Shown: positions 19,292 through 43,050 of the stretch, piece by piece
How positions within the stretch are numbered: the first letter of the stretch is position 1
Layout: the number at the start of each line of letters is the position of its first letter
IMG/VR virus record: IMGVR_UViG_3300033146_003090
Coordinates: 1 to 43,050 of that record
Length of the DNA: 43,050 nt
Strand: one strand, 5' to 3'
From: a virus
Taxonomy: Duplodnaviria > Caudoviricetes
The notes under the pieces: model-generated
Seen by the model: the letters and a program-made list of their open reading frames with translations, nothing else
What the model was told of the DNA's origin: nothing
Databases searched by the model: none
Position numbers and translations under genes: made by a program

Positions 19292-20586
19292 TGGATATAT
19301 CAGAGTTCATAAATACAGATTTCAAATCATTCTCAATGGCAGATAATATAAGGAATATCCCGTCAATATGTGATGGGTTCAAACCTTCTCAGAGAAAGAT
19401 CATCTATACCATGATGCACAAGGATAGACTCTGGAAAGTATCCAGGCTGGCATCTGCAGTAGCAGAATTTACTCATTATCAACATGGTGAAACATCTTTG
19501 GCTGATACTGCCATAACAATGGCCCAGGACTATCCAGGGTCAAATAACTGTCCCCTTTTGCTCAAGCATGGTCAATTCGGTAATTCATTGGATAAGTCAG
19601 GGGCATCAGCTCCCAGGTATATCTCTGTTGATCTTGGAAAGTGGTATAAAGAGTTCTTTGATAGAAATGATGATGATTTATTGGAATTACAATCCATTGA
19701 AGGAGAAGATGCAGAACCATTTCATTTGATGCCTTTGATTCCTATGTGGGCAGTCAATGGTTCTTCTGGAATTGGTACTGGTCATGCAACCAAAATTATT
19801 CCTCATAGATTATCAGATATCAAGAAAGTAATTAAGAAGTATCTCAAGGATGGTGAGGATATCATACCAATGGTTCCTTATATCAATGGGTTCGGTGGTA
19901 ATATCTCTCTGGCTGACGGTAGAGTGACTTTAACTGGTGTTTATAAGGTAGTCAATACTACCCATATAAATATCACAGACATTCCATATTTGTATGATAA
20001 TGACAGCTACAAAGCACTTCTGAATAATCTCATTATTTCAGGGGATATAAAAGATTATACCAATAAATCCACTGAAGATGGGTGGATGTTTGAAATATCA
20101 TGTCCCAGGACAACTACCAAGAAGACCAAGAAGCAAATCATTAAACTCTTTGGCCTGCAACGAACATTGACTCAGAACTTCACTCTATGGGATACTAATG
20201 GATTGCTTCATAATTATGGAACCATAGGAGAAGCACTTAAGGAATGGATTGATTGGCGTTTGGCCCTGGTAGTCAAGCGTAAAGCCCTAATGATGAAGCA
20301 ATTCAAAGCAGAGATTCTATGGAGTCAAGTTCAGAGTGATTTTGTGACGTGGTGGAATACCAATTCTGCTTCTTTGGTAAAGCTCAATGCCTCAGACTTA
20401 ATTTCAAGGATTAAAGGAGAGGTTACACCAAAGAGAATGTTCATAGAGCTATTGATGAAAAAACCTATATCATCACTCACTCTTGAATCTGTTATGAGGT
20501 TTAACAAGAAGATTGAAAGACATAATTTTGAAATGAATGAATTAGATGCAAAAAAGCCGGTTGACATCTTCTATGATGCACTATAG
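19291..20586 (+). CDS. gp52: DNA topoisomerase II medium subunit (T4 gp52-like)
   Basis: DGFKPSQRK, YQHGE, SAPRY (catalytic Tyr), NGSSGIGTG. Confidence 0.96.
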   Translation: MDISEFINTDFKSFSMADNIRNIPSICDGFKPSQRKIIYTMMHKDRLWKVSRLASAVAEFTHYQHGETSLADTAITMAQDYPGSNNCPLLLKHGQFGNSLDKSGASAPRYISVDLGKWYKEFFDRNDDDLLELQSIEGEDAEPFHLMPLIPMWAVNGSSGIGTGHATKIIPHRLSDIKKVIKKYLKDGEDIIPMVPYINGFGGNISLADGRVTLTGVYKVVNTTHINITDIPYLYDNDSYKALLNNLIISGDIKDYTNKSTEDGWMFEISCPRTTTKKTKKQIIKLFGLQRTLTQNFTLWDTNGLLHNYGTIGEALKEWIDWRLALVVKRKALMMKQFKAEILWSQVQSDFVTWWNTNSASLVKLNASDLISRIKGEVTPKRMFIELLMKKPISSLTLESVMRFNKKIERHNFEMNELDAKKPVDIFYDAL

Positions 20587-20589
20587 ACT
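20561..20589 (+). promoter_or_regulatory. sigma70-type promoter for the macrodomain gene
   Basis: TTGACA-N17-TAGACT. Confidence 0.8.
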
Positions 20590-20621
20590 AACAAAACAAC
20601 ACAGATGAGGAGAAGTTCATT

Positions 20622-21206
20622 ATGATTACATTCGAGACTATTAAGGGTGATATTACCAAGATCAAAGCAGACTGCAGCGTGAACGCTGCAAACACTATTA
20701 TGATGGGTGGTGATGGAGTAGATGGTGCTTTACATCGAGCAGCAGGGAAGCAGCTTAAAAACTACATAGAAATGACTTACCGATCAGGTTTGGAACCCAA
20801 TGAACCTGCAGTCAAGACCGGCCAAGTAATCCATACACCATCTTTTGGGCTACAAGACATATGCCATAGCATTTTTCACGTAGCAGGGCCAGATTGTAGA
20901 ATATTAGATGAAGATCAGGCTTTCGATTCATTAGTAGAGACTTACAAGAATATTGCCATCACTATCATGAAATGGAACGATCACTACCTGCAGACAAATG
21001 ATAGAGAGAAATTGATCAATGAAATCACTATCCCGGCAATTTCCACTGGCATATATGGGATGGAAGCCCTAATGTCTTCATGTGTCGCCATAACCACATT
21101 AAATGAAATATTAGGGGATTACGAGAGAAAGGTTAAGGTAATTTTTGTTTTGTTTAATGACTATCTTAAAAAGATTTACGACAAAGTTTTGTTTTACAGT
21201 GAATGA
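20622..21206 (+). CDS. Macrodomain protein (ADP-ribose binding / hydrolase, MacroD/YmdB-like)
   Basis: KGDITK, VNAAN, GGDGVDGALHRAAG, HVAGP, PAISTGIYG. Confidence 0.93.
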   Translation: MITFETIKGDITKIKADCSVNAANTIMMGGDGVDGALHRAAGKQLKNYIEMTYRSGLEPNEPAVKTGQVIHTPSFGLQDICHSIFHVAGPDCRILDEDQAFDSLVETYKNIAITIMKWNDHYLQTNDREKLINEITIPAISTGIYGMEALMSSCVAITTLNEILGDYERKVKVIFVLFNDYLKKIYDKVLFYSE

Positions 21207-21226
21207 AGGTAATTACATGTTCATCG

Positions 21227-21264
21227 AAAGCCATATTTCTTCATTGGAATATGGCTTTTGTTTT
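21227..21264 (+). terminator. Rho-independent terminator
   Basis: AAAGCCATATT...AATATGGCTTTTGTTTT. Confidence 0.8.
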
Positions 21265-21269
21265 AAATA
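21263..21269 (+). promoter_or_regulatory. Putative late promoter
   Basis: TTAAATA about 40 nt upstream of the 1096-aa ORF. Confidence 0.6.
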
Positions 21270-21309
21270 GTAAAAGAACTATTTTAATTTTAATCTTTTT
21301 GGGGGTATT

Positions 21310-24300
21310 ATGAAATCCATATTCAGTGATGCAAATACATCTAAACTTCTAACAGAGTCCTTCAACTCAGAACCATTCGAGTGGACTAAAAGCATCGTTT
21401 CAGGTGAAGTAGTATATGACTTTGATGTTGATCTTGGTAATGAAGAAGTTTTTGAGTATCGTGTCAAGTTCATGAAAGTGTCTAAAACAACGATCAAGAT
21501 GCCTGTTGATAAGGCTACATCCAAACAAACTACAATGATCGGATTCGGTCAAAGAATGCCCGGGGCAGGTAAATTTAAGCAGTTGAAAAAAATCATAGAG
21601 CCATTCAGAACCATTGGAACTATGTCTGCAATCATGAATGACTTTTTGGTCTCTGCCAAAACCAAACCAATCAATGGTTTCATCTTTGCCTTTCAGCCTA
21701 AAATATACAAGAAAGTCAAGCGTGTCCTTCCTATGATTTTCAAAAAAACAACCAAGAAGATTAAGCATGTTGATGTCAATGTCTCTTTACTCCCAGGAAA
21801 ACAGTTCATGTATTTCTGTAGAAAGAATGTTGATCCTGCTTCAGTATTTGTTTTCCCTGAATATGAAGGTGAGTTTAGCCCAGAAGCCATACAGTCAAAC
21901 AAAGATAACAATCCTGGTATCCCTTCCTCTTCAATTTCAACTGATGAAGTAACTATCCCAGCAATTCAGCCTATTACTGTAGATGATAAATTGAATGTGA
22001 TTTTTAGTATCTTTGATGAAGAGTATTTTGTGCAAGGTTCTGATAGTGCATGGGATAGATGGTCAGGTGCTCATTACTTTGGTTATCGAAAGATTATTAA
22101 TGGGAAATTGATCAGGGTGAGAGTAGAGATTGAAAATATATATAATGCCATCAAGAATGGAGAGTCATATGTTCCTGGTGAAGTTATATATAGTTCAGTT
22201 CCCGATATATCCGAAATTGACTTTCCAGTGAATCCCACGTCATTAATGTCTTTCCTTAGTGGATTAGAAGGTATCTATGGAAATTCAACGGATACTGGTT
22301 CAGAGAAGACTGCTATCTTCTCTACATATACAATGGCTCAAAATGTTGTAAAGTTGATGAATAAATATAACTCCAATATTAATGTCAGTTCCTATGAAGA
22401 CAAAGTAACTATTACCAATTATGATGAATCTTCCAGTATCACTGAAGAAGCTGATGATGTATTAGATGCAATGAGACGATTGGATGATTATTCATGGTAT
22501 CCCGATGAATTTCAATATGACTTTGATGCAGAATTATTTCTACCCATTGATGAGAATGAAGATTGGTATGGTGTTCCTATTCCAATCAATAGTGATTGGA
22601 AAGTTATCAGTAATCCATCTCAATATATTATTCACTATCAGGATGATGAAACAGGGGGTATAGTAGAGTTTAATAATGGGATATATGTCTACACATTAGA
22701 TGGTGTCAATGAAGTCGGTACAGGTGGATATAAGCACCTTGGGGGTATAGTTACTGTACTCAAAGAAGCCCGGGATTATTTCAAGAATCCCAATATCACC
22801 TCATCTATGAAAATGAATTTTGTCGCCATGGAATTTGAAGATACTTATCATTTATCAGATGGAGTTCAATGGGAAAAGATTACAGATGAGGATCATTTCA
22901 TTTATAAAGGTACCATTGATGGTGAAGATGCCAAGTTGACTGTTGACATGGATAAAATATATCAACAGTCTTATGATATGAGTTATGAGAAAGTACTGGG
23001 AAATCTTGATTATGGAGATAACTCAATGGAAGTTGAAGTTGAAACAGATCCAATTAATTTTTTAAATTTTCTGGAAACACTCAAAGCTCAAGCCATTGGT
23101 TCCTTCATAGATAGTCCTGATACTGATGAAGATGAAGTATATTTGACAGAAATCTCATACCCTTTCAATGGCTTTGATGTTATTCAATCATCTGGGAAAC
23201 AAGCCAGAGGATATTTTCTTACTCAAGTTAAAACATATATAGACAACAGTGCCAACGAAACAAGTCAGATTGATATCAATATCAACCCCAAAGCAGTCGT
23301 CATTTCTAATATTACATCTGAAGAAGTTAATCTTTTTAATTTATGGTATGATGATGTAATGGAATTAATGAATCCAGGGCATAGTGATTCAGTGCCAGTA
23401 GTATGGCTTGAATTTGAAGATTGGGATTTAAATGAAATATCCAATGAGAAAGTAGAATATACTAATCATTATGGTAAATTTACTTCAGTAATATCTATTG
23501 ATGGAGATACCTTTTCACTCAAAATCAATGGTCAACAATCTTCATTATTCGATAATAATCCATTTAAGGATCTCAAAAAAGATGTAATTGAAGTAGTAGT
23601 GTCATACTTGAATGGGGTTCAGTCACCTATTGTAAGTTGGCCTGATGTAATATCATGGGATCAAATGAGCAGTGCTAATGAATTTCAGATGCAGTATATT
23701 CGTGGTGATATCACTGTTCTTATTGATAGGATCAATAGGGAATATACCATTGGTAATAACACTGAACCAGTTAAATTTAATCTTGAAATCAAATCACTTC
23801 TTGCACAGATTTGGGAAATATCCAAATACACACCTGGTACATATGTTAAAGTGGATCCAACATCTGAATTATGGCTTACGTCTGAATTTCAGACAGAACT
23901 TAAAGCTCATAATTGGATAGGCAGAGTGTCTGGGATTAGTGGCCTTTCTTATATTAAGATTGGAATTCCATATATGCCTGAGATCGAAAATGAGACAATC
24001 TCAGTATCTAACATACAAGAAATAATATTCAAGCCATCCAAGAGTTCATTTGAAACGTCATATAATTGGCCAGTTATATCTGGTTGGTCTAAAGATATAA
24101 AGGAAAAAGTTGCTTTTTACTCGTTAGATGATATTGAATTGAAATTTGATTCAATCTCCAGCAACTATACATTGAAAGTTGATGGGCTACCTATTAGTAC
24201 TGGTGTATTTGAGCAAGGTGATATTGTTGATATCATCAATAAAGCTCAAAAGGATCACGGTAAACTGACTCATGAACCGGGGACACCTTTAAAATTTCAT

Positions 24301-24600
24301 ACAGAATCTGATCATTATCCTACACCCAAGGGTTTGAAGATCATTACAGATGCTAATTTTGAAGCTGAATTTGTGATGGAATTGGATGATGGAACAGTCA
24401 TAGCAAAGACTTCATCCGGGAAACAGTTTACAACCAAGAAAGAAGGCATTTCAGGAGTTGTGGGTGAAACTGGTATACCTGGTGATTGTACTGTAGAAGA
24501 AAATGATGTTGGTGAAGTTATTTTCACTCAGGATGAAACAGTTATCAAATTCACTAAAGAAGAGTCAATTGAACTCAAGACTTGGTTACGTCAACAATAA
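21310..24600 (+). CDS. Large multi-domain protein with a T4 Alt-like N-terminal domain; probable internal head protein
   Basis: N-terminal LLTE (gp21-type site); MYFCRKNVDPASVFVFPE resembles T4 Alt ILIHRKNVSLEDIPGVPE as recalled; late-type promoter; acidic repeated remainder. Confidence 0.6.
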   Translation: MKSIFSDANTSKLLTESFNSEPFEWTKSIVSGEVVYDFDVDLGNEEVFEYRVKFMKVSKTTIKMPVDKATSKQTTMIGFGQRMPGAGKFKQLKKIIEPFRTIGTMSAIMNDFLVSAKTKPINGFIFAFQPKIYKKVKRVLPMIFKKTTKKIKHVDVNVSLLPGKQFMYFCRKNVDPASVFVFPEYEGEFSPEAIQSNKDNNPGIPSSSISTDEVTIPAIQPITVDDKLNVIFSIFDEEYFVQGSDSAWDRWSGAHYFGYRKIINGKLIRVRVEIENIYNAIKNGESYVPGEVIYSSVPDISEIDFPVNPTSLMSFLSGLEGIYGNSTDTGSEKTAIFSTYTMAQNVVKLMNKYNSNINVSSYEDKVTITNYDESSSITEEADDVLDAMRRLDDYSWYPDEFQYDFDAELFLPIDENEDWYGVPIPINSDWKVISNPSQYIIHYQDDETGGIVEFNNGIYVYTLDGVNEVGTGGYKHLGGIVTVLKEARDYFKNPNITSSMKMNFVAMEFEDTYHLSDGVQWEKITDEDHFIYKGTIDGEDAKLTVDMDKIYQQSYDMSYEKVLGNLDYGDNSMEVEVETDPINFLNFLETLKAQAIGSFIDSPDTDEDEVYLTEISYPFNGFDVIQSSGKQARGYFLTQVKTYIDNSANETSQIDININPKAVVISNITSEEVNLFNLWYDDVMELMNPGHSDSVPVVWLEFEDWDLNEISNEKVEYTNHYGKFTSVISIDGDTFSLKINGQQSSLFDNNPFKDLKKDVIEVVVSYLNGVQSPIVSWPDVISWDQMSSANEFQMQYIRGDITVLIDRINREYTIGNNTEPVKFNLEIKSLLAQIWEISKYTPGTYVKVDPTSELWLTSEFQTELKAHNWIGRVSGISGLSYIKIGIPYMPEIENETISVSNIQEIIFKPSKSSFETSYNWPVISGWSKDIKEKVAFYSLDDIELKFDSISSNYTLKVDGLPISTGVFEQGDIVDIINKAQKDHGKLTHEPGTPLKFHTESDHYPTPKGLKIITDANFEAEFVMELDDGTVIAKTSSGKQFTTKKEGISGVVGETGIPGDCTVEENDVGEVIFTQDETVIKFTKEESIELKTWLRQQ

Positions 24601-24639
24601 GATATACGAGGGATTAAGAGTCCCTCTTGGAGGATTGAA

Positions 24640-26049
24640 ATGAGCAACATTCAAGTAGGTAATAGTAAGATATCTGTGATCATAGGGGAAGTCATTATCA
24701 CTGACTCTGGTAAGACTATTGATATTCCTCTTCATACTGTCAAATCAATGCTAAATATCTATGATCTCAAAGATGCAACCATAGTCACTACTGAACAGTT
24801 TGAGGCAGGTATTGAAGGTTGGAAAACTTTTTCAAATAAATTGAATGACCTAACCAATGGTGATCTCCAGCTTCTCACATATGATGAAGTCAGTGATGTG
24901 GCTAAGCTCTATGGTATCACACAGATTTCAGTCAAGCGGGCAATGAAAGTCCAAGATGGATTATCAGAAGCAGATACAAATTCTCTTTGGGTAATGAAAA
25001 ATCCACCCAATATTACATCAAAGAAAGTCATTCAGGTTCCTATTCACAAAGTTTTAAAGAATATGAAGAAATATAGCAGCCCAGACTTGATGAAATGGAT
25101 AAAAACTAATCCCATCCCGACTAACCCAAGTGCTAAAGTGTGGTCATTTAAAGATGACAAGAAACTCCAGACACTATATGGTAATTTCCAGGGAATGTAT
25201 CAAGGCAAGGATATGGTTCTTACTGATGCCATTAAGTCTTTATCTATGGGAAAAATACCTAAAGAAGATGCTTATAAAATTGAAAGTTTCACGAATAATG
25301 TTAGTGCTGAGGTATACTCCAAGTTGAAGAAAACTCAAATGGCGATGACTACTGATGGTAGTTCAGCAGTTAAGACTTTTTGTGGTAGTTATTATAGTAC
25401 AATTAATGGATTCTTGAAGGGATATAAAACTACAAATACAGCTGGTGTACAGGATGTATGCAAAAATATGGATAAAGCCTTTACTAAACAGGGTATTAAG
25501 TTGGATCCTAATATCTACCTGTACAGAAGTCAAACGATTGAAAAAGAGAAACTTCAAAATTTAGAAGCTGGTATTGTTTTACCATATGATGGCTACGTTT
25601 CTTTTACTCTCAGATTTGGGATGGCTACATCATGGAAAAATGCTTCATTAATGAATATGTTTAAATTAAAAGGATCATATGACACTACAGTTGTTTTCAT
25701 CTGTAAGGGTTTTGATAAGTGTTTAAGTTTATTCCCGGCAGATATTAGTCCACATTCTGGAGAACATGAGATTATTGCAAACCGGGGAATTGGAATCAAG
25801 ATCCTTAGACGTCTGAATAAAAAAGATGCCCATACCAATTTTTATGAAACTGAGATAGTTACATCGGAGGTAGAAACTTTGGTTGAATCAAGTATGGATA
25901 CTTCAATACCATCAGATATCATGAAACTTATTGCCATTGAGAATGAACTTGAGAAAGATCCAAAATATTGTGCCAGGAAAGCAGCAGAAACACAGAATTA
26001 TAATTCTGAGAAATGGAATGAATCGATCAATTTTGATGATTTTGAATAG
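24640..26049 (+). CDS. NAD+:protein ADP-ribosyltransferase (Alt/VIP2-like, R-S-E clade)
   Basis: FCGSYYSTINGFL..MDKAF..LYRSQ..GYVSFTL..GEHEII; GGAGG RBS. Confidence 0.88.
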   Translation: MSNIQVGNSKISVIIGEVIITDSGKTIDIPLHTVKSMLNIYDLKDATIVTTEQFEAGIEGWKTFSNKLNDLTNGDLQLLTYDEVSDVAKLYGITQISVKRAMKVQDGLSEADTNSLWVMKNPPNITSKKVIQVPIHKVLKNMKKYSSPDLMKWIKTNPIPTNPSAKVWSFKDDKKLQTLYGNFQGMYQGKDMVLTDAIKSLSMGKIPKEDAYKIESFTNNVSAEVYSKLKKTQMAMTTDGSSAVKTFCGSYYSTINGFLKGYKTTNTAGVQDVCKNMDKAFTKQGIKLDPNIYLYRSQTIEKEKLQNLEAGIVLPYDGYVSFTLRFGMATSWKNASLMNMFKLKGSYDTTVVFICKGFDKCLSLFPADISPHSGEHEIIANRGIGIKILRRLNKKDAHTNFYETEIVTSEVETLVESSMDTSIPSDIMKLIAIENELEKDPKYCARKAAETQNYNSEKWNESINFDDFE

Positions 26050-26071
26050 CATTATGAATATCTAAACATAT

Positions 26072-26136
26072 CAACCACTTATGAAACTACGTGAGGGTAT
26101 AGTCAATACAGCCTTTTTCGTCTTCATAAGTGGTTG
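26072..26136. repeat. 14-bp inverted repeat with a structured 37-nt loop
   Basis: CAACCACTTATGAA...TTCATAAGTGGTTG. Confidence 0.85.
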
Positions 26137-26205
26137 TTTTGACTGTACTTTTTCTGGAGGTATGATTCCAAATGACAAAAATAGGAAAAAAAGAATTAAA
26201 AACTG

Positions 26206-26234
26206 TTGACAAACAGATTTTCATACTATATCTT
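26206..26234 (+). promoter_or_regulatory. sigma70-type promoter
   Basis: TTGACA-N17-TATCTT. Confidence 0.75.
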
Positions 26235-26288
26235 GAAGATGAAATTGAGATTGATATGAATGAAGCAAAGCAGATTTTGGGAGTCAAT

Positions 26289-26963
26289 ATGCTGGATATC
26301 AGTAATTACATCAAGATAGGCAATCAACAGGGGTCAAATACAGGTGGATTCTATTCAGAGAAGGAAACAGGTGAACAATTTTACATGAAGTTCTATGAGA
26401 ACATCGAAATCACCGATACTGAATTTTCTGCAAACAAGTTCTATGATATCTTGGGAGCCAATGTCCCTTCATTGAGCAAAGTTAAAAATGAATCAGGGGA
26501 TATTGGGATTGCATCCAAAGTCGTGGAAGGATTGTCCATTGATCAGCAAGCATTAAAGACAGATCCCAAGCTCAGGGCAGGAATCATGGAAAACTTTGCC
26601 ATTGATTGCTGGTTGGGAATGTGGGATGTGAAAGGTCTTGATTGGGACAACCTGTTGGTTGATACTATCAAGGGCCAGGTCATTAGGATTGATACGGGTG
26701 GCTCTATGAGATGGCGGGCCATGGGAACCAAGAAGAAAGCATCTGATTTTTCATGTGATGTTCCGGAGCTTGTATCAATGAAAGACCCCAAAAGGTCAGC
26801 GGGGAAACTCTTTCATAGCATTACAGATGCAGAAATTCAGATAGGAATTAACAAAGTCACTTCACTATCTGATGAAACAATAGCCAATGTCATTGGAGAC
26901 GATCAGGAATTGATTGACATTCTGATCTGTCGACGGGAAACACTTCGTAATTATTTCAACTAA
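26289..26963 (+). CDS. PI3/4-kinase / HipA-like kinase-fold protein (start may be 26172)
   Basis: Gly loop QGSNTGGFY, FYMK, E..ANKFY..LG..VP, DCWLGMWD..DNLL, RIDTGG. Confidence 0.75.
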   Translation: MLDISNYIKIGNQQGSNTGGFYSEKETGEQFYMKFYENIEITDTEFSANKFYDILGANVPSLSKVKNESGDIGIASKVVEGLSIDQQALKTDPKLRAGIMENFAIDCWLGMWDVKGLDWDNLLVDTIKGQVIRIDTGGSMRWRAMGTKKKASDFSCDVPELVSMKDPKRSAGKLFHSITDAEIQIGINKVTSLSDETIANVIGDDQELIDILICRRETLRNYFN

Positions 26964-26975
26964 AAGGGGATTCAA

Positions 26976-27725
26976 ATGAGCATCAATGTAACTGTACTTT
27001 CAGAGTCAAAAGAGAATTACCTGGCAGCAATGATTGGAATGGGCCTGGCTTTCAACAAGACTGCTCATTGTAAGTCTATCGATGATCTCAAAAGGAATAG
27101 TCAATTAAGATCATCTATGCACCAGAGAGCTATGAAGATGGCTTTCAAGGGGAAAGGGCATTCCAAGTTCTTGAGGGCTATTCATCTTGATCTTTTGGTT
27201 GAGGCACCACTTGATTGGTGGACACAGCAGGCAACTTATACTACCACAGACGCTGTACAGTCAACATCCACAATGCACACTTTAAAACGTGACGGTGGTG
27301 TCTTTGATGATAATGTCGATTCTGTCATCATGGATCGTGTTAATGAGATGCTCGATGACCCATCAATTTCATTGGATATTCTCAAGAAATCTATTCCAAT
27401 TGGATTCATCTACACCAGAACCATTCATCTGAACTACCAAACACTGCAGCATATGTTCATGCAGAGGCATAATCACAAATTAAAGGAATGGAGGGATTTT
27501 TGTGAACAGATCATGGAGCAGATAGCTCATCCATATTTCATTGACCCTGATTACATGAAGACTATTAAAGTTAAGGTTGATTTACTTCGTCGAAGCAAAG
27601 GCAGGATCTCAGCTATCAAAGAATATCATTGGAGTACAGGGCTATCTCTCCGAATGGCAAAAGATTGGTGCGATGAGAGATATTCAGATGGTAAGTTTTC
27701 GGACGATTACCAAGAAGAAAATTAA
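26976..27725 (+). CDS. Divergent ThyX-like protein with a C-terminal L7/L12-like domain
   Basis: GHSKFLR, APLDWWTQ..TY..STSTMH, LNYQTL..QRHNHKLKEW; C-terminal ISAIKEY..TGLSLRMAKDWCD. Confidence 0.7.
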   Translation: MSINVTVLSESKENYLAAMIGMGLAFNKTAHCKSIDDLKRNSQLRSSMHQRAMKMAFKGKGHSKFLRAIHLDLLVEAPLDWWTQQATYTTTDAVQSTSTMHTLKRDGGVFDDNVDSVIMDRVNEMLDDPSISLDILKKSIPIGFIYTRTIHLNYQTLQHMFMQRHNHKLKEWRDFCEQIMEQIAHPYFIDPDYMKTIKVKVDLLRRSKGRISAIKEYHWSTGLSLRMAKDWCDERYSDGKFSDDYQEEN

Positions 27726-27829: not shown

Positions 27830-28612
27830 ATGAAAAAGATCATTTTCATCATTGCAACAATCATCATGCTCCATTCTATCAATTCACAAGCGGACGGAAT
27901 CCCTTTCTTCGATGATTCATTTAAAATTACATATGCAGCAAGTAATATGATGAAGAGGATTGTCGGAGAACCAGTGAATCCATTAATCAAGGAATATGAT
28001 AGGAATCTTCTGGCTTTGAATCCAGGGCAATGTTCAATGAAATATCTTCTTGAGAGCAAGAAAAATGCTCTCAGTAGCTTTAAACTTACAATGATGATGC
28101 ATGATGATGCCATGAAATATTTCAGCTTGGCAGAGAAGTTACTTGTGAATATAGACACATATGAATCCGAAACGAGAATCATTGAATCATGGGATGTCCC
28201 GGCTCAGGTCTACATCAATGAAATAGTTGAACTTTACAATCAAAATCATGCTTCTGATATCGCAAAGGCAGATGAAGTTTTAAAACAATTACATGATCAA
28301 GGAAAACAAAATACCTCTGGTTACCGTCGACTACTCGCAGATAGGAATCGAATCATTGACACTGTTAACAATTCAATTCAGGGATTCAAGGACGCAGAAG
28401 CCAAGAAAAAGAAAATAGGTAAGTTCAAAAGAACAGTTTCTTTGAAATTAATCAATGACCTTAAGAGAGAGGTTGCTGATGAAATTAAGAAAACAGGGAA
28501 AGTAGATAGTAACGATTACACTACTATGATAAGGATGTTGTCCGAAAATAGTGACAAGATCGCAAAACTCCAAAGTAAATTCATAGCCGATTACAGGGCA
28601 CTGCTCAGATGA
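27830..28612 (+). CDS. Secreted / periplasmic helical protein
   Basis: MKKIIFIIATIIMLHSINSQA Sec signal peptide; own promoter and terminator. Confidence 0.8.
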   Translation: MKKIIFIIATIIMLHSINSQADGIPFFDDSFKITYAASNMMKRIVGEPVNPLIKEYDRNLLALNPGQCSMKYLLESKKNALSSFKLTMMMHDDAMKYFSLAEKLLVNIDTYESETRIIESWDVPAQVYINEIVELYNQNHASDIAKADEVLKQLHDQGKQNTSGYRRLLADRNRIIDTVNNSIQGFKDAEAKKKKIGKFKRTVSLKLINDLKREVADEIKKTGKVDSNDYTTMIRMLSENSDKIAKLQSKFIADYRALLR

Positions 28613-29797: not shown

Positions 29798-29868
29798 TTC
29801 TCATGTTACAAAATAGGCTAAAAATTAGGAAATATGCTGTTTTTCAGAAAAAGTGAATAAATCCAATT

Positions 29869-29894
29869 AGTTAAGATTTGAGTTTGTAGGGCCA
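29869..29894 (-). repeat. Degenerate copy of the dispersed element
   Basis: AGTTAAGATTTGAGTTTGTAGGGCCA; 19/26 identical to the reverse complement of 5843-5868. Confidence 0.7.
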
Positions 29895-30094
29895 TGAACT
29901 GAGTTTTTTAAAATTTAATGTAACAATGAGGATACTCTGATTTTGAAGAGTATTTATAAATGTATCATTGAACTGATATTAGATTCAACTTGAACTCAAA
30001 TCATACTCAATATTTGATTGGATGTTCATTTTTGTGTCATTTCTTCCAAGAAAGGCCAAAAGTTAGAAATTTCGATTGTCTAATCATTTCAAGC

Positions 30095-30117
30095 ACTTAA
30101 TTTTCTGTTTTGTAGGG
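30095..30117 (-). repeat. Dispersed 23-bp element, copy 2
   Basis: ACTTAATTTTCTGTTTTGTAGGG. Confidence 0.9.
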
Positions 30118-30184
30118 AAATGATTTTAGTTTTTAAGTACATCAGAGAAGGTTTAAAATCAACCATTTTGAAGGAGAAAAATCA

Positions 30185-30283
30185 ATGAAACAGTTTTTCT
30201 TGTGGTTCATATTATTTGGGGTTTGGACGGTGGATCAGTTGGCGATGCAGTTTTGCATCTATCATTGGATGTTTTTAGCTTAA
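30185..30283 (+). CDS. 32-aa hydrophobic peptide
   Basis: AAGGAG RBS; MKQFFLWFILFGVWTVDQLAMQFCIYHWMFLA*; below the ORF-track cutoff. Confidence 0.55.
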   Translation: MKQFFLWFILFGVWTVDQLAMQFCIYHWMFLA

Positions 30284-30295
30284 AGGAATTGAATC

Positions 30296-31021: not shown

Positions 31022-31024
31022 TTG

Positions 31025-31053
31025 TTGACAGAGTTGGATTCATGTGGTAGGAT
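31025..31053 (+). promoter_or_regulatory. sigma70-type promoter with extended -10
   Basis: TTGACA-N17-TAGGAT, TG upstream of the -10. Confidence 0.8.
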
Positions 31054-31087
31054 CAATTTAATTCGACAACAAACAAAGGAAAAACAC

Positions 31088-31507
31088 ATGACTCCAACTA
31101 AACACGAACGGGCAGGAATCATTCCATTTTACATCGAAAATAATAAGGTCTTTGTCTATCTAATGATCCCTTCAAACAAACGATTTGGAGGAACTCAACC
31201 TCAGATAGCCAAAGGATGTAAAGATGGGGACGAAACCCCATGGGAAACCGCTACCAGAGAAGCATATGAAGAAATTGGTCTCATGGAATCAAATCTCAAA
31301 GGGGATTCCATTACATTAGTGGATTCCAAGAACAAAATAACAATCTTTGCAAATGAAATCTACTCTCTTGCAGATTTTGATGAGTTTGGTCCAGAGACAG
31401 CGGGGACAGTGATATTGCAGTTAACTGAGAATAACATTTCATTGGTCAGGAAATGGCAACAACCTTACTTCATGGCTTTAATTGAATATTTTGAAAAAAA
31501 GTCTTGA
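31088..31507 (+). CDS. Nudix hydrolase (T4 NudE-like)
   Basis: AGIIPF; Nudix box KGCKDGDETPWETATREAYEEIG. Confidence 0.9.
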   Translation: MTPTKHERAGIIPFYIENNKVFVYLMIPSNKRFGGTQPQIAKGCKDGDETPWETATREAYEEIGLMESNLKGDSITLVDSKNKITIFANEIYSLADFDEFGPETAGTVILQLTENNISLVRKWQQPYFMALIEYFEKKS

Positions 31508-31968: not shown

Positions 31969-32346
31969 TTAAACTTCAGTGACATCAACACGAAAGAAAT
32001 CTGGCATGGCATCATTGATCATGAATTCGATTGCAATGTTTTCATTATGATTATGAATAATATCAGCAATCTCTGTACCGTCCAGAGGGATATATTGTTG
32101 TTTATATTTTTTATCTTCAACTATCCAAGTAATATCAACCCCAAGCTCGGGTTCTTTAATCAATACTCCAGTAGATGATATTTTATTATGGATCCAATCA
32201 TCAAATAAAATCCAATAAACCCCTTCTCTATCTATATCATAATCCACCATCATATCTGCAATTTTATCTTCTGAATATTCGCAAATCTCTCTGGTGATTC
32301 CAGCTGTATTTCCCTCTATTTCAAATTCAAATTTCAAATTCACCAT
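31969..32346 (-). CDS. Hypothetical acidic protein (only credible minus-strand gene)
   Basis: GGGGGA RBS on the minus strand; fills the gap; ends at the bidirectional terminator. Confidence 0.75.
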   Translation of the reverse strand: MVNLKFEFEIEGNTAGITREICEYSEDKIADMMVDYDIDREGVYWILFDDWIHNKISSTGVLIKEPELGVDITWIVEDKKYKQQYIPLDGTEIADIIHNHNENIAIEFMINDAMPDFFRVDVTEV

Positions 32347-41842: not shown

Positions 41843-43050
41843 ATGTTGATCACAGAAGCTGTAAAAGCAAAATGGCAAGCAGTTATGGTTGAGGATGATA
41901 AGAGCCTATCAGCCTTGTCCAAAGAAGATGTAACCATACTTATGATGGAAAATCAGAGTAAGTGGAACAAAGAAAATCTGAGTGAGTCTGTCGTTGCGAA
42001 CAATACAATGGGTTCTAATGCCATTGCAACCTGGTCACCAGTTCTCATCAAGATGGCTAAACGAATTTCATATGCAAATATTGGTTTTGATCTGATGGGT
42101 GTGCAGCCTCTAAAGACTCCCGATGGACAGATTTTTGCAATGAGAGCCAGATATGCTACTCAGAGTGGTTCTGAAGCATTCATGAATGAAGCCGTAACAT
42201 CTACATCAGGTGACCCGACAGGTTCTCATTCTGGTGACACCTCTGGTTTTCCTGCTACTCATGTTGGATCTGGTGGTACCGCTTCCAGTGTTGCTCCTGG
42301 TATGCTGACGAAAGATGCAGAGAAGTTGGGAACTACCACTGGTAATCCCTGGAAAGCAATGGCAATCAGTATTGAGAAACAGACAGTATCTGTTAAAACT
42401 CGTGCTTTGATGGCTTCCTATACCTCTGAGATTCGTGAAGACATGAAAGCCGTTCATGGTGAAGATGTTGATAAGATCCTGACCGATGTATTGACAACTG
42501 AAATTCAGGCAGAAATGAATAGAGAGTTTATTCGTCTCTGTAACATCTCAGCCAAATACGGTGGAATTGGAGTCACTAATGCTGGTGTCCTGGATATGGC
42601 CACTGATGTAACAGGTAGATGGTCTGCAGAGAAGTTTCGTGAGATGCTTTTTCAGATTGAACTTGAATCTAACTCCATTGCCCGTGAAACAAGACGTGGA
42701 AAGGGTAATAAACTCATTACTACTTCCAATGTTGCTTCTGCCCTGGCCATGGCTGGTTTACTTGATCATGCAGTTGATTATAACAAAGCAAACGGAATCA
42801 ATATGCAGTCAGTCAATGATGTAAATTCTGCATATGTTGGCACCCTGGCCACTGGTCATGCTGTATATGTTGATGCATTTGCAATGTCTGATTATATTTC
42901 CATTCATTATAAAGGTGCAAGTCCTCTGGATGCTGGTTTATTTTACTGCCCATACGTACCATTAACCATGTACCGGGCAAGTGGGGAAGAGTCCCTTTCA
43001 GATTCCAGGATTGGTTTTAAAACCAGATATGGTATCTGTGCAAACCCCTT
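41843..43050 (+). CDS. gp23: Major capsid protein (T4 gp23-like), 3' partial
   Basis: Own translation: MLITEAVKAKWQ..GVQPLKTPDGQIFAMRARY..EIQAEMNRE..RRGKGN..FYCPYVPL..IGFKTRYG..ANP; runs off the window; AGGAG RBS. Confidence 0.97.
   Translation, partial: MLITEAVKAKWQAVMVEDDKSLSALSKEDVTILMMENQSKWNKENLSESVVANNTMGSNAIATWSPVLIKMAKRISYANIGFDLMGVQPLKTPDGQIFAMRARYATQSGSEAFMNEAVTSTSGDPTGSHSGDTSGFPATHVGSGGTASSVAPGMLTKDAEKLGTTTGNPWKAMAISIEKQTVSVKTRALMASYTSEIREDMKAVHGEDVDKILTDVLTTEIQAEMNREFIRLCNISAKYGGIGVTNAGVLDMATDVTGRWSAEKFREMLFQIELESNSIARETRRGKGNKLITTSNVASALAMAGLLDHAVDYNKANGINMQSVNDVNSAYVGTLATGHAVYVDAFAMSDYISIHYKGASPLDAGLFYCPYVPLTMYRASGEESLSDSRIGFKTRYGICANP

Follow-up and report, generated by a model that had tools for sequence, protein, structure and literature searches.

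The Alt protein of phage T4 is an ADP-ribosyltransferase (ART) that modifies arginine, as is echoed in the annotations of database records. It is cut by the prohead protease gp21 at ITE-6 and LTE-619 (PMC5694885), with the loss of 6 N-terminal and 63 C-terminal residues (PMC5694885, PMC9026906), and the purpose of so large an N-terminal part and of a propeptide at either end is presented as an open question (PMC5694885). Head-packaged ARTs and virion proteins bearing several effectors are already on record (PMC9503650, PMC5512222). We report here on a divergent T4-like myophage, the IMG/VR record IMGVR_UViG_3300033146_003090 (the window, that is, the whole stretch of 43,050 nucleotides (nt) analysed), in which four adjacent and co-oriented open reading frames (ORFs), all on the + strand, encode a macrodomain (20622-21206), a protein of 1096 amino acids (aa; 21310-24600), an Alt-like ART (24640-26049) and a kinase-fold protein (26172-26963). 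This arrangement and these domain calls, put forward in an original prediction made from the letters alone, were confirmed by the ORFs and by profile and fold searches. On balance we think it probable, with some reserve, that the split Alt pair is a late head-cargo unit that is injected. The kinase is probably delivered in the same way as another effector, and the macrodomain is likely an early gene for anti-defence that stands apart; the best reading of the sequence is that such a head-cargo locus would serve host takeover or anti-defence.

An Alt divided between two genes

The ART (469 aa) comprises an N-terminal module of ~45 aa, the catalytic domain, a predicted cleavage site LVE-416 and an acidic C-terminal propeptide. 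It matches PF03496 (E 9e-11) and, over residues 132-410, the Alt-like family phrog_802 (E 3.9e-27); R296, S321 and E375-H-E377, aligned to T4 Alt, agree with the R-S-E type first assigned to it. Its own polypeptide lacks the Alt N-domain, which sits on the upstream 1096-aa protein as an Alt-type N-terminal domain (residues 12-191), with a predicted gp21 site, LTE-16, and then an acidic body. Homology shows the 1096-aa protein to be an Alt N-domain joined to a unique body, and the ART to be the catalytic part of Alt joined to a new N-terminal module, a division of Alt that the original prediction had proposed.

Homologues of the 1096-aa protein cover only residues ~10-230 (330 phage records, mostly Ackermannviridae). 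A profile of this protein with five such N-termini aligned to four T4-type Alt N-termini (hhalign 92.9%, E 3.8e-7), and a hidden Markov model (HMM) of the N-termini of 37 ART hits, with the window sequence excluded, matched residues 12-191 (E 4.2e-16); these 37 N-termini had been chosen using an HMM containing the 1096-aa protein, which the final HMM did not contain. Among 1.8 billion representatives searched, the Alt N-domain is fused in 37 of 50 non-self ART hits, the spurious repeat hit P0018 being retained in the denominator. Besides P0018, the 13 hits without the N-domain include the four closest relatives of the ART or their fragments. P0006 (479 aa), P0056 (482 aa) and P0008 start at most 3 residues from the ART start, have no Alt N-domain and possess the N-terminal module of the ART, which is absent from the fused relatives; P0006 matches the ART at 41% over residues 6-468. 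Because three independent close relatives start at the same point, the split is a lineage trait and no sequencing accident.

The gp21-type LxE sites, at which cleavage is predicted, are divided between the two proteins: LTE-16 of the 1096-aa protein aligns with ITE-6 of T4 Alt, and LVE-416 of the ART lies within one column of LTE-619. An LxE at the latter position is kept in all five relatives that reach it, a motif too common near the C-terminus to count by itself (48/52). A conserved natural split with one propeptide per gene would make the question of the N-terminal part and propeptides of Alt directly testable.

The N-domain is portable. Ralstonia phage RSP15 has one on an R-S-E ART and one on a PARP-like protein, and in Vibrio phages it heads two paralogues that differ in body. 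It recurs in Sajous1 gp214 (29.5% over 183 aa, E 1.5e-14), for which proteomics of virions purified on CsCl gave 196 spectra, a rank within the first five proteins by abundance (PMC10892097, Table 6). Delivery of the ART from the virion, as first proposed, is likely in view of the LxE sites and of this virion homologue of the N-domain. ViI-like phages are said, in the CBA120 paper (PMC3184105), to have no Alt homologues, a statement that the N-domain match would qualify; an Ackermannviridae protein that is abundant in virions, and is annotated as hypothetical or as tail completion, may thereby have its N-domain reassigned as Alt-derived. A conserved Alt split, the N-domain as a portable module and this kinase family were each absent from the titles and abstract openings searched, and the supplements of PMC9503650 may list these architectures.

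For the body of the 1096-aa protein (~900 residues), family searches and an Atlas search gave no match, and no homologue was found among proteins of 602-1918 aa, nor below 602 aa for residues 600-1096. It has weak internal repeats (best z ~6 after many comparisons). No catalytic domain was found in the 1096-aa protein, the single-sequence fold of which was unusable (predicted local distance difference test, pLDDT, 30).

The motif TTAAATA precedes the 1096-aa gene (21263-21269, +), as originally pointed out, and its motif and spacing match those of sites before head and tail genes. TAAATA is not enriched in the window (36 found, 46 expected), and 6 of the 13 TTAAATA on the + strand sit 27-61 nt 5' of head or tail genes, namely terS (two sites), sheath, portal, gp22 and the presumed gp23; the case for a late-type promoter at 21263 is positional. 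Between the 1096-aa gene and the ART lies a spacer of 39 nt (24601-24639, +) with a hairpin (24608-24626) and a GGAGG ribosome-binding site for the ART. It is in frame and open (13 codons), as are 6 of 30 junctions, hence unremarkable, and read-through across it was rejected.

Some further carriers of the N-domain, and another divided Alt, came to light. In the annotation of Salmonella phage Melville, a confirmed frameshift divides the alt gene (L009:3012-5119), an independent split of Alt. Kuttervirus gp214, annotated as tail completion, carries the Alt N-domain (L025:5642-9301, Sajous1 gp214-217; L001:5995-9670), and gp215 and gp216 begin with short propeptide-like stretches, F-x-x-F/L-K-E, which we take to resemble the targeting sequences of T4 internal proteins. 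All four of Sajous1 gp214-217 are present in virions, and the cluster looks like one of internal head proteins rather than a tail or iron-uptake operon. In RSP15, ORF127 (L003:9017-13138) combines the Alt N-domain with a PARP-like domain (PF00644, E 4e-7) and adjoins ORF128, which has the R-S-E ART. Vibrio phage 207E48.1 has, between two Alt-N-domain paralogues, a gene for 154 aa (L002:8451-8915) with no Pfam or PHROG match, the YHGT start of which is, we presume, suggestive of an ART.

The kinase, the shared module and the route into the head

The kinase (263 aa) was assigned to the CtkA/PI4K/HipA fold from its fold match and catalytic residues; it has no Pfam, PHROG or NCBIfam match. A two-sequence model (pLDDT 64) with a full C-lobe matches CtkA (Z 13.5, root-mean-square deviation (rmsd) 4.0 Å, 205 residues aligned) and also PI4KII-alpha (Z 11.8), actin-fragmin kinase (11.8), HipA (11.0) and CotH; a Foldseek search pointed to the same fold. 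K73, E84, D152, N160 and D174 are invariant in 11/11 aligned sequences, and with this catalytic set intact the kinase fold originally predicted stands. Neither a HipA Pfam match nor an antitoxin-like neighbour gene (hipB), as looked for in a HipA toxin, was found.

Among 20 phage hits to the kinase, we examined nine records, which amount to about three lineages and not to nine independent events. In all nine the kinase domain is internal to a protein of 734-3289 aa. In four of them Pfam recognises an ART on the kinase chain itself, and a fifth is annotated as ART without Pfam match; for these five, the second gene further on is a Nudix (by Pfam in four). Three of the nine, Gordonia proteins, come after a portal gene, and two of these have an ART as the second gene beyond them; one record, DSL-LC01, shows no ART. 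The structural neighbours of the kinase in Atlas and BFVD are fusion proteins that include Nudix, MuF, portal and ART parts. The functional link between kinase and ART gains from this recurrent fusion and adjacency in other phages, as it does from a shared N-terminal module, and the window kinase, being small and encoded by itself, may represent a phage kinase family that is tied to ARTs and so far unstudied in a form easy to express and assay.

The likeness between the N-termini of ART and kinase was first spotted by eye and tested afterwards. With a position-specific scoring matrix (PSSM) of four ART N-termini, the kinase N-terminus was the top non-self match of 11,486 sequence windows, in register, and outscored all 41,418 windows of the related fused proteins. 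The kinase score was reached by 1 of 2000 shuffles and that of its independent homologue P0002 by 28 of 2000. The controls were null (macrodomain, 962/2000; C-terminus of the 1096-aa protein, 487/2000), and a copy of the module at the latter place was ruled out. From these scores it is probable that the ART and the kinase share an N-terminal module of ~45 aa.

If the Alt pair is head cargo, TTAAATA would drive late expression of the 1096-aa gene and the ART. The 1096-aa protein would enter the prohead via the short propeptide at its N-terminus, which is removed at LTE-16, and the ART via its C-terminal propeptide, cut at LVE-416, its N-terminal module, or both. Like Alt, the ejected ART would mono-ADP-ribosylate host proteins on arginine, its targets being RNA polymerase or proteins of defence. 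The kinase, with the shared module, might take the same route and phosphorylate host proteins. The macrodomain would bind or hydrolyse host-made ADP-ribose adducts or signals, with no reversal of the ART.

A number of results count against this scheme. The serine motif of the ART is S-F-T, not S-T-S; eight of the ART hits without N-domain are unexplained; and the 1096-aa protein escapes an HMM built from just the four T4-type Alts (E 0.31). IMG/VR scans with the ART, the big N-part, the portal, topoisomerase B and the kinase alignment gave no relatives with genomic context, and motif scans for relatives gave zero, one chance locus and six chance metagenome loci. As regards the kinase, its N-terminal similarity to the ART is not significant by HMMER and is weak in pairwise alignment too, and the LxE propeptide motif is absent from its first 30 residues. 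The gap between the two genes holds a 14-bp inverted repeat with a long loop and then a U run (26072-26140, +; z -3.1), a possible terminator or processing site, and this strong hairpin weighs against co-transcription. Two sigma70-like sites at the kinase start fit a separate early transcript that also covers the following gene, which begins after a gap of 12 nt. The kinase had been credited with a sigma70 promoter of its own, and the TTGACA site in question (TTGACA-17-TATCTT, 26206-26234, +) turned out to lie within the ORF, at codons 12-21 and 5' of an in-frame ATG at 26256 (Met29); before the kinase ATG there is another candidate, TTGACT-16-TATGAT (26139-26166, +), a consensus match only, which ends 5 nt before that ATG.

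These points on the kinase would be expected if the Alt pair held and the kinase were unconnected with it, a cytoplasmic protein of early or middle expression whose gene leads an operon with the following one, its N-terminal likeness being chance or a relic. This is the most serious of the alternatives, albeit an unlikely one: the PSSM and shuffle results favour a shared module, P0002 retains a similar N-terminal extension, and the family recurs in ART-, MuF- and portal-linked proteins. That the kinase is an early gene is uncertain. A codon-usage classifier of late and early genes failed its own leave-one-out control, so the contrast in GC3 (G+C at third codon positions) was left unused.

One might also speculate, with considerable doubt, that the virion is loaded in two tiers: the 1096-aa protein, with its Alt N-domain, would be a catalytically empty carrier which enters the prohead and recruits interchangeable ART and kinase cassettes through the ~45-aa tag they share, the internal promoter giving in addition a tag-less early kinase from Met29. 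One kinase gene would then yield injected and cytoplasmic forms, and the tag, if transferable, would offer a novel route for loading proteins into T4-like heads. If so, the kinase would typify a widespread but uncharacterised family of CtkA-like kinases that are injected from the virion and act together with ARTs.

The macrodomain gene

On our preferred reading, that of an injected Alt pair, the macrodomain stands apart. This protein (194 aa) is of the MacroD/YmdB type (PF01661, E 1e-20), and its gene is likely a separate early one. The motifs GDIT, NAAN, GVDG and ISTGIYG are present, and its score lies below the NCBIfam equivalog cut-offs. Its loop reads GGDG, not an intact GGGG, with Asp31 at Gly37 of OiMacroD, the position of the catalytic water. 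A generic sigma70 scan of the window was at chance level (70 sites, 66.8 expected); the strict TTGACA-N16-18-TANNNT occurs 15 times against 2.9 expected, every time on the + strand. To this strict class belongs TTGACA-17-TAGACT before the macrodomain gene (20561-20589, +), a sigma70-type promoter that overlaps the end of topoisomerase II A, and 3' of the gene is a terminator-like hairpin of the intrinsic type (21225-21260, +; 15 pairs, U tail, intergenic z -3.8); the promoter and terminator of its own that had been claimed for it were thus both recovered.

The original prediction saw here a possible timed circuit: marks written by the virion ART would be read or removed by the early macrodomain, and the kinase would time the switch. 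The genes adjoin and their promoter classes differ; human MacroD2 took the mark of AcrIF11, a phage ART, off Csy1 in lysate (PMC12421852), and Asp31 could alter the specificity of the macrodomain. However, MacroD enzymes prefer ester-linked ADP-ribose and removal from arginine is the work of ARH/DraG (PMC7050489), so that by this literature the chemistry of macrodomain and ART is mismatched, and the terminator-like hairpin lies between the two genes, the macrodomain having its own promoter. The same observations bear on a toxin-antitoxin or writer/eraser pair of the DarTG or SirTM type, in which matched chemistry and a conserved linkage of two genes would be expected. The change G37V of OiMacroD, at the position equivalent to Asp31, displaced the catalytic water and lowered kcat fourfold, giving the lowest de-ADP-ribosylation with binding kept (PMC5413906). 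Among myoviruses a macrodomain is reported in 41% and an ART in 30%, and phage macrodomains are argued to act on host-made derivatives (PMC9503650). There is also the precedent of T4, the macrodomain AdfM of which counters DarTG2; T4 Alt helps to evade Mokosh (bioRxiv 2025.11.20.689424). A macrodomain gene is annotated in none of the ten Alt or N-domain neighbourhoods fetched, most hypothetical genes there being unscanned. We judge the circuit improbable; the caveat that came with it, that the macrodomain may counter host NAD+/ADP-ribose defences, is the better reading, and the macrodomain is likely an unrelated early anti-defence gene.

Least credible, and very improbable, is a single 1578-aa Alt-like protein broken by one TAA, be it a mutation, an error of assembly or a codon that is read through. 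For this the same frame, the 13-codon open spacer, fused relatives of up to 1611 and 1681 aa and the frameshift-split alt of Melville can be cited, and against it stand the three relatives beginning at the same residue, the ART's own GGAGG site, the frequency of such spacers in the window and the lack of the ART module in fused relatives.

Genome setting and comparison with known systems

Profile searches identified in the window the T4-type genes for clamp, clamp loader, RegA, gp32, gp33, gp43, topoisomerase II and primase, as well as terminase, sheath, tube, portal, gp21 and gp22. The closest match of the portal is in RSP15 (37%), and the macrodomain, the 1096-aa protein, the ART and the kinase are each singletons at 90% identity. 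The Nudix hydrolase noted some 4 kb further on is indeed there (31022-31507, +; PF00293, E 2e-5), among nucleotide-metabolism genes. The gene 12 nt downstream of the kinase (26976-27725) encodes a phrog_6721 protein, which has a motif that is, we presume, ThyX-like in appearance; a 260-aa protein follows (27830-28612) with a signal-peptide-like N-terminus, its own TTGACA promoter and terminator, and no match in family searches. Antirepressor-like Bro-N and KilAC genes lie at 267-2215 in this T4-like, lytic-type genome, the Bro-N and ANT halves being two overlapping ORFs. About 500 nt 3' of primase (29798-30295) are without long ORF, a 125-aa ORF before terS (31969-32346, -) has no family match, and an Rfam search gave zero matches. 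The presumed major capsid gene (41843-43050) is truncated where the contig ends, and its product begins with M-L-I-T-E, which is Alt-like.

With T4 Alt the locus shares the N-domain, the R-S-ExE catalytic domain, the N- and C-terminal LxE sites and a late-type promoter; it differs in having one gene for the N-domain and another for the catalytic domain, a unique body of 900 aa, a new N-terminal module on the ART and an adjoining kinase. The Ackermannviridae proteins of phrog_3867 (Sajous1 gp214, CBA120 orf111, D5lw gp126) and RSP15 ORF127/128 have the same N-domain with LxE and long variable bodies. The bodies are unrelated, however, with no ART domain in the three Kuttervirus/Vibrio proteins scanned, and in RSP15 the ART stays fused to the N-domain.

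Dolphis-like kinase-ART fusions and the portal-linked Gordonia proteins belong to the same kinase family (27-36% identity), tied to an R-S-E ART, Nudix or portal; there the kinase domain is embedded in a long protein, whereas here it is a stand-alone gene in a T4-like phage. Helicobacter pylori CtkA, PI4KII, actin-fragmin kinase and HipA are alike in fold and catalytic residues (rmsd ~4 Å), but identity is 11-16% and no family HMM matches the window kinase. The macrodomain resembles YmdB and OiMacroD in its MacroD-type sequence and differs by the Asp at the G37 position; it may be likened, by gene position and without comparison to the Tk.4 sequence, to T4 AdfM (Tk.4), a phage macrodomain beside, yet independent of, an Alt. 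Finally, polyvalent proteins, as described by Iyer in 2017 (PMC5512222), combine several effector domains per chain, with a truncated kinase lacking the C-lobe and an ART of the HYD type, whereas the window has separate genes, a kinase with full C-lobe and an R-S-E ART.

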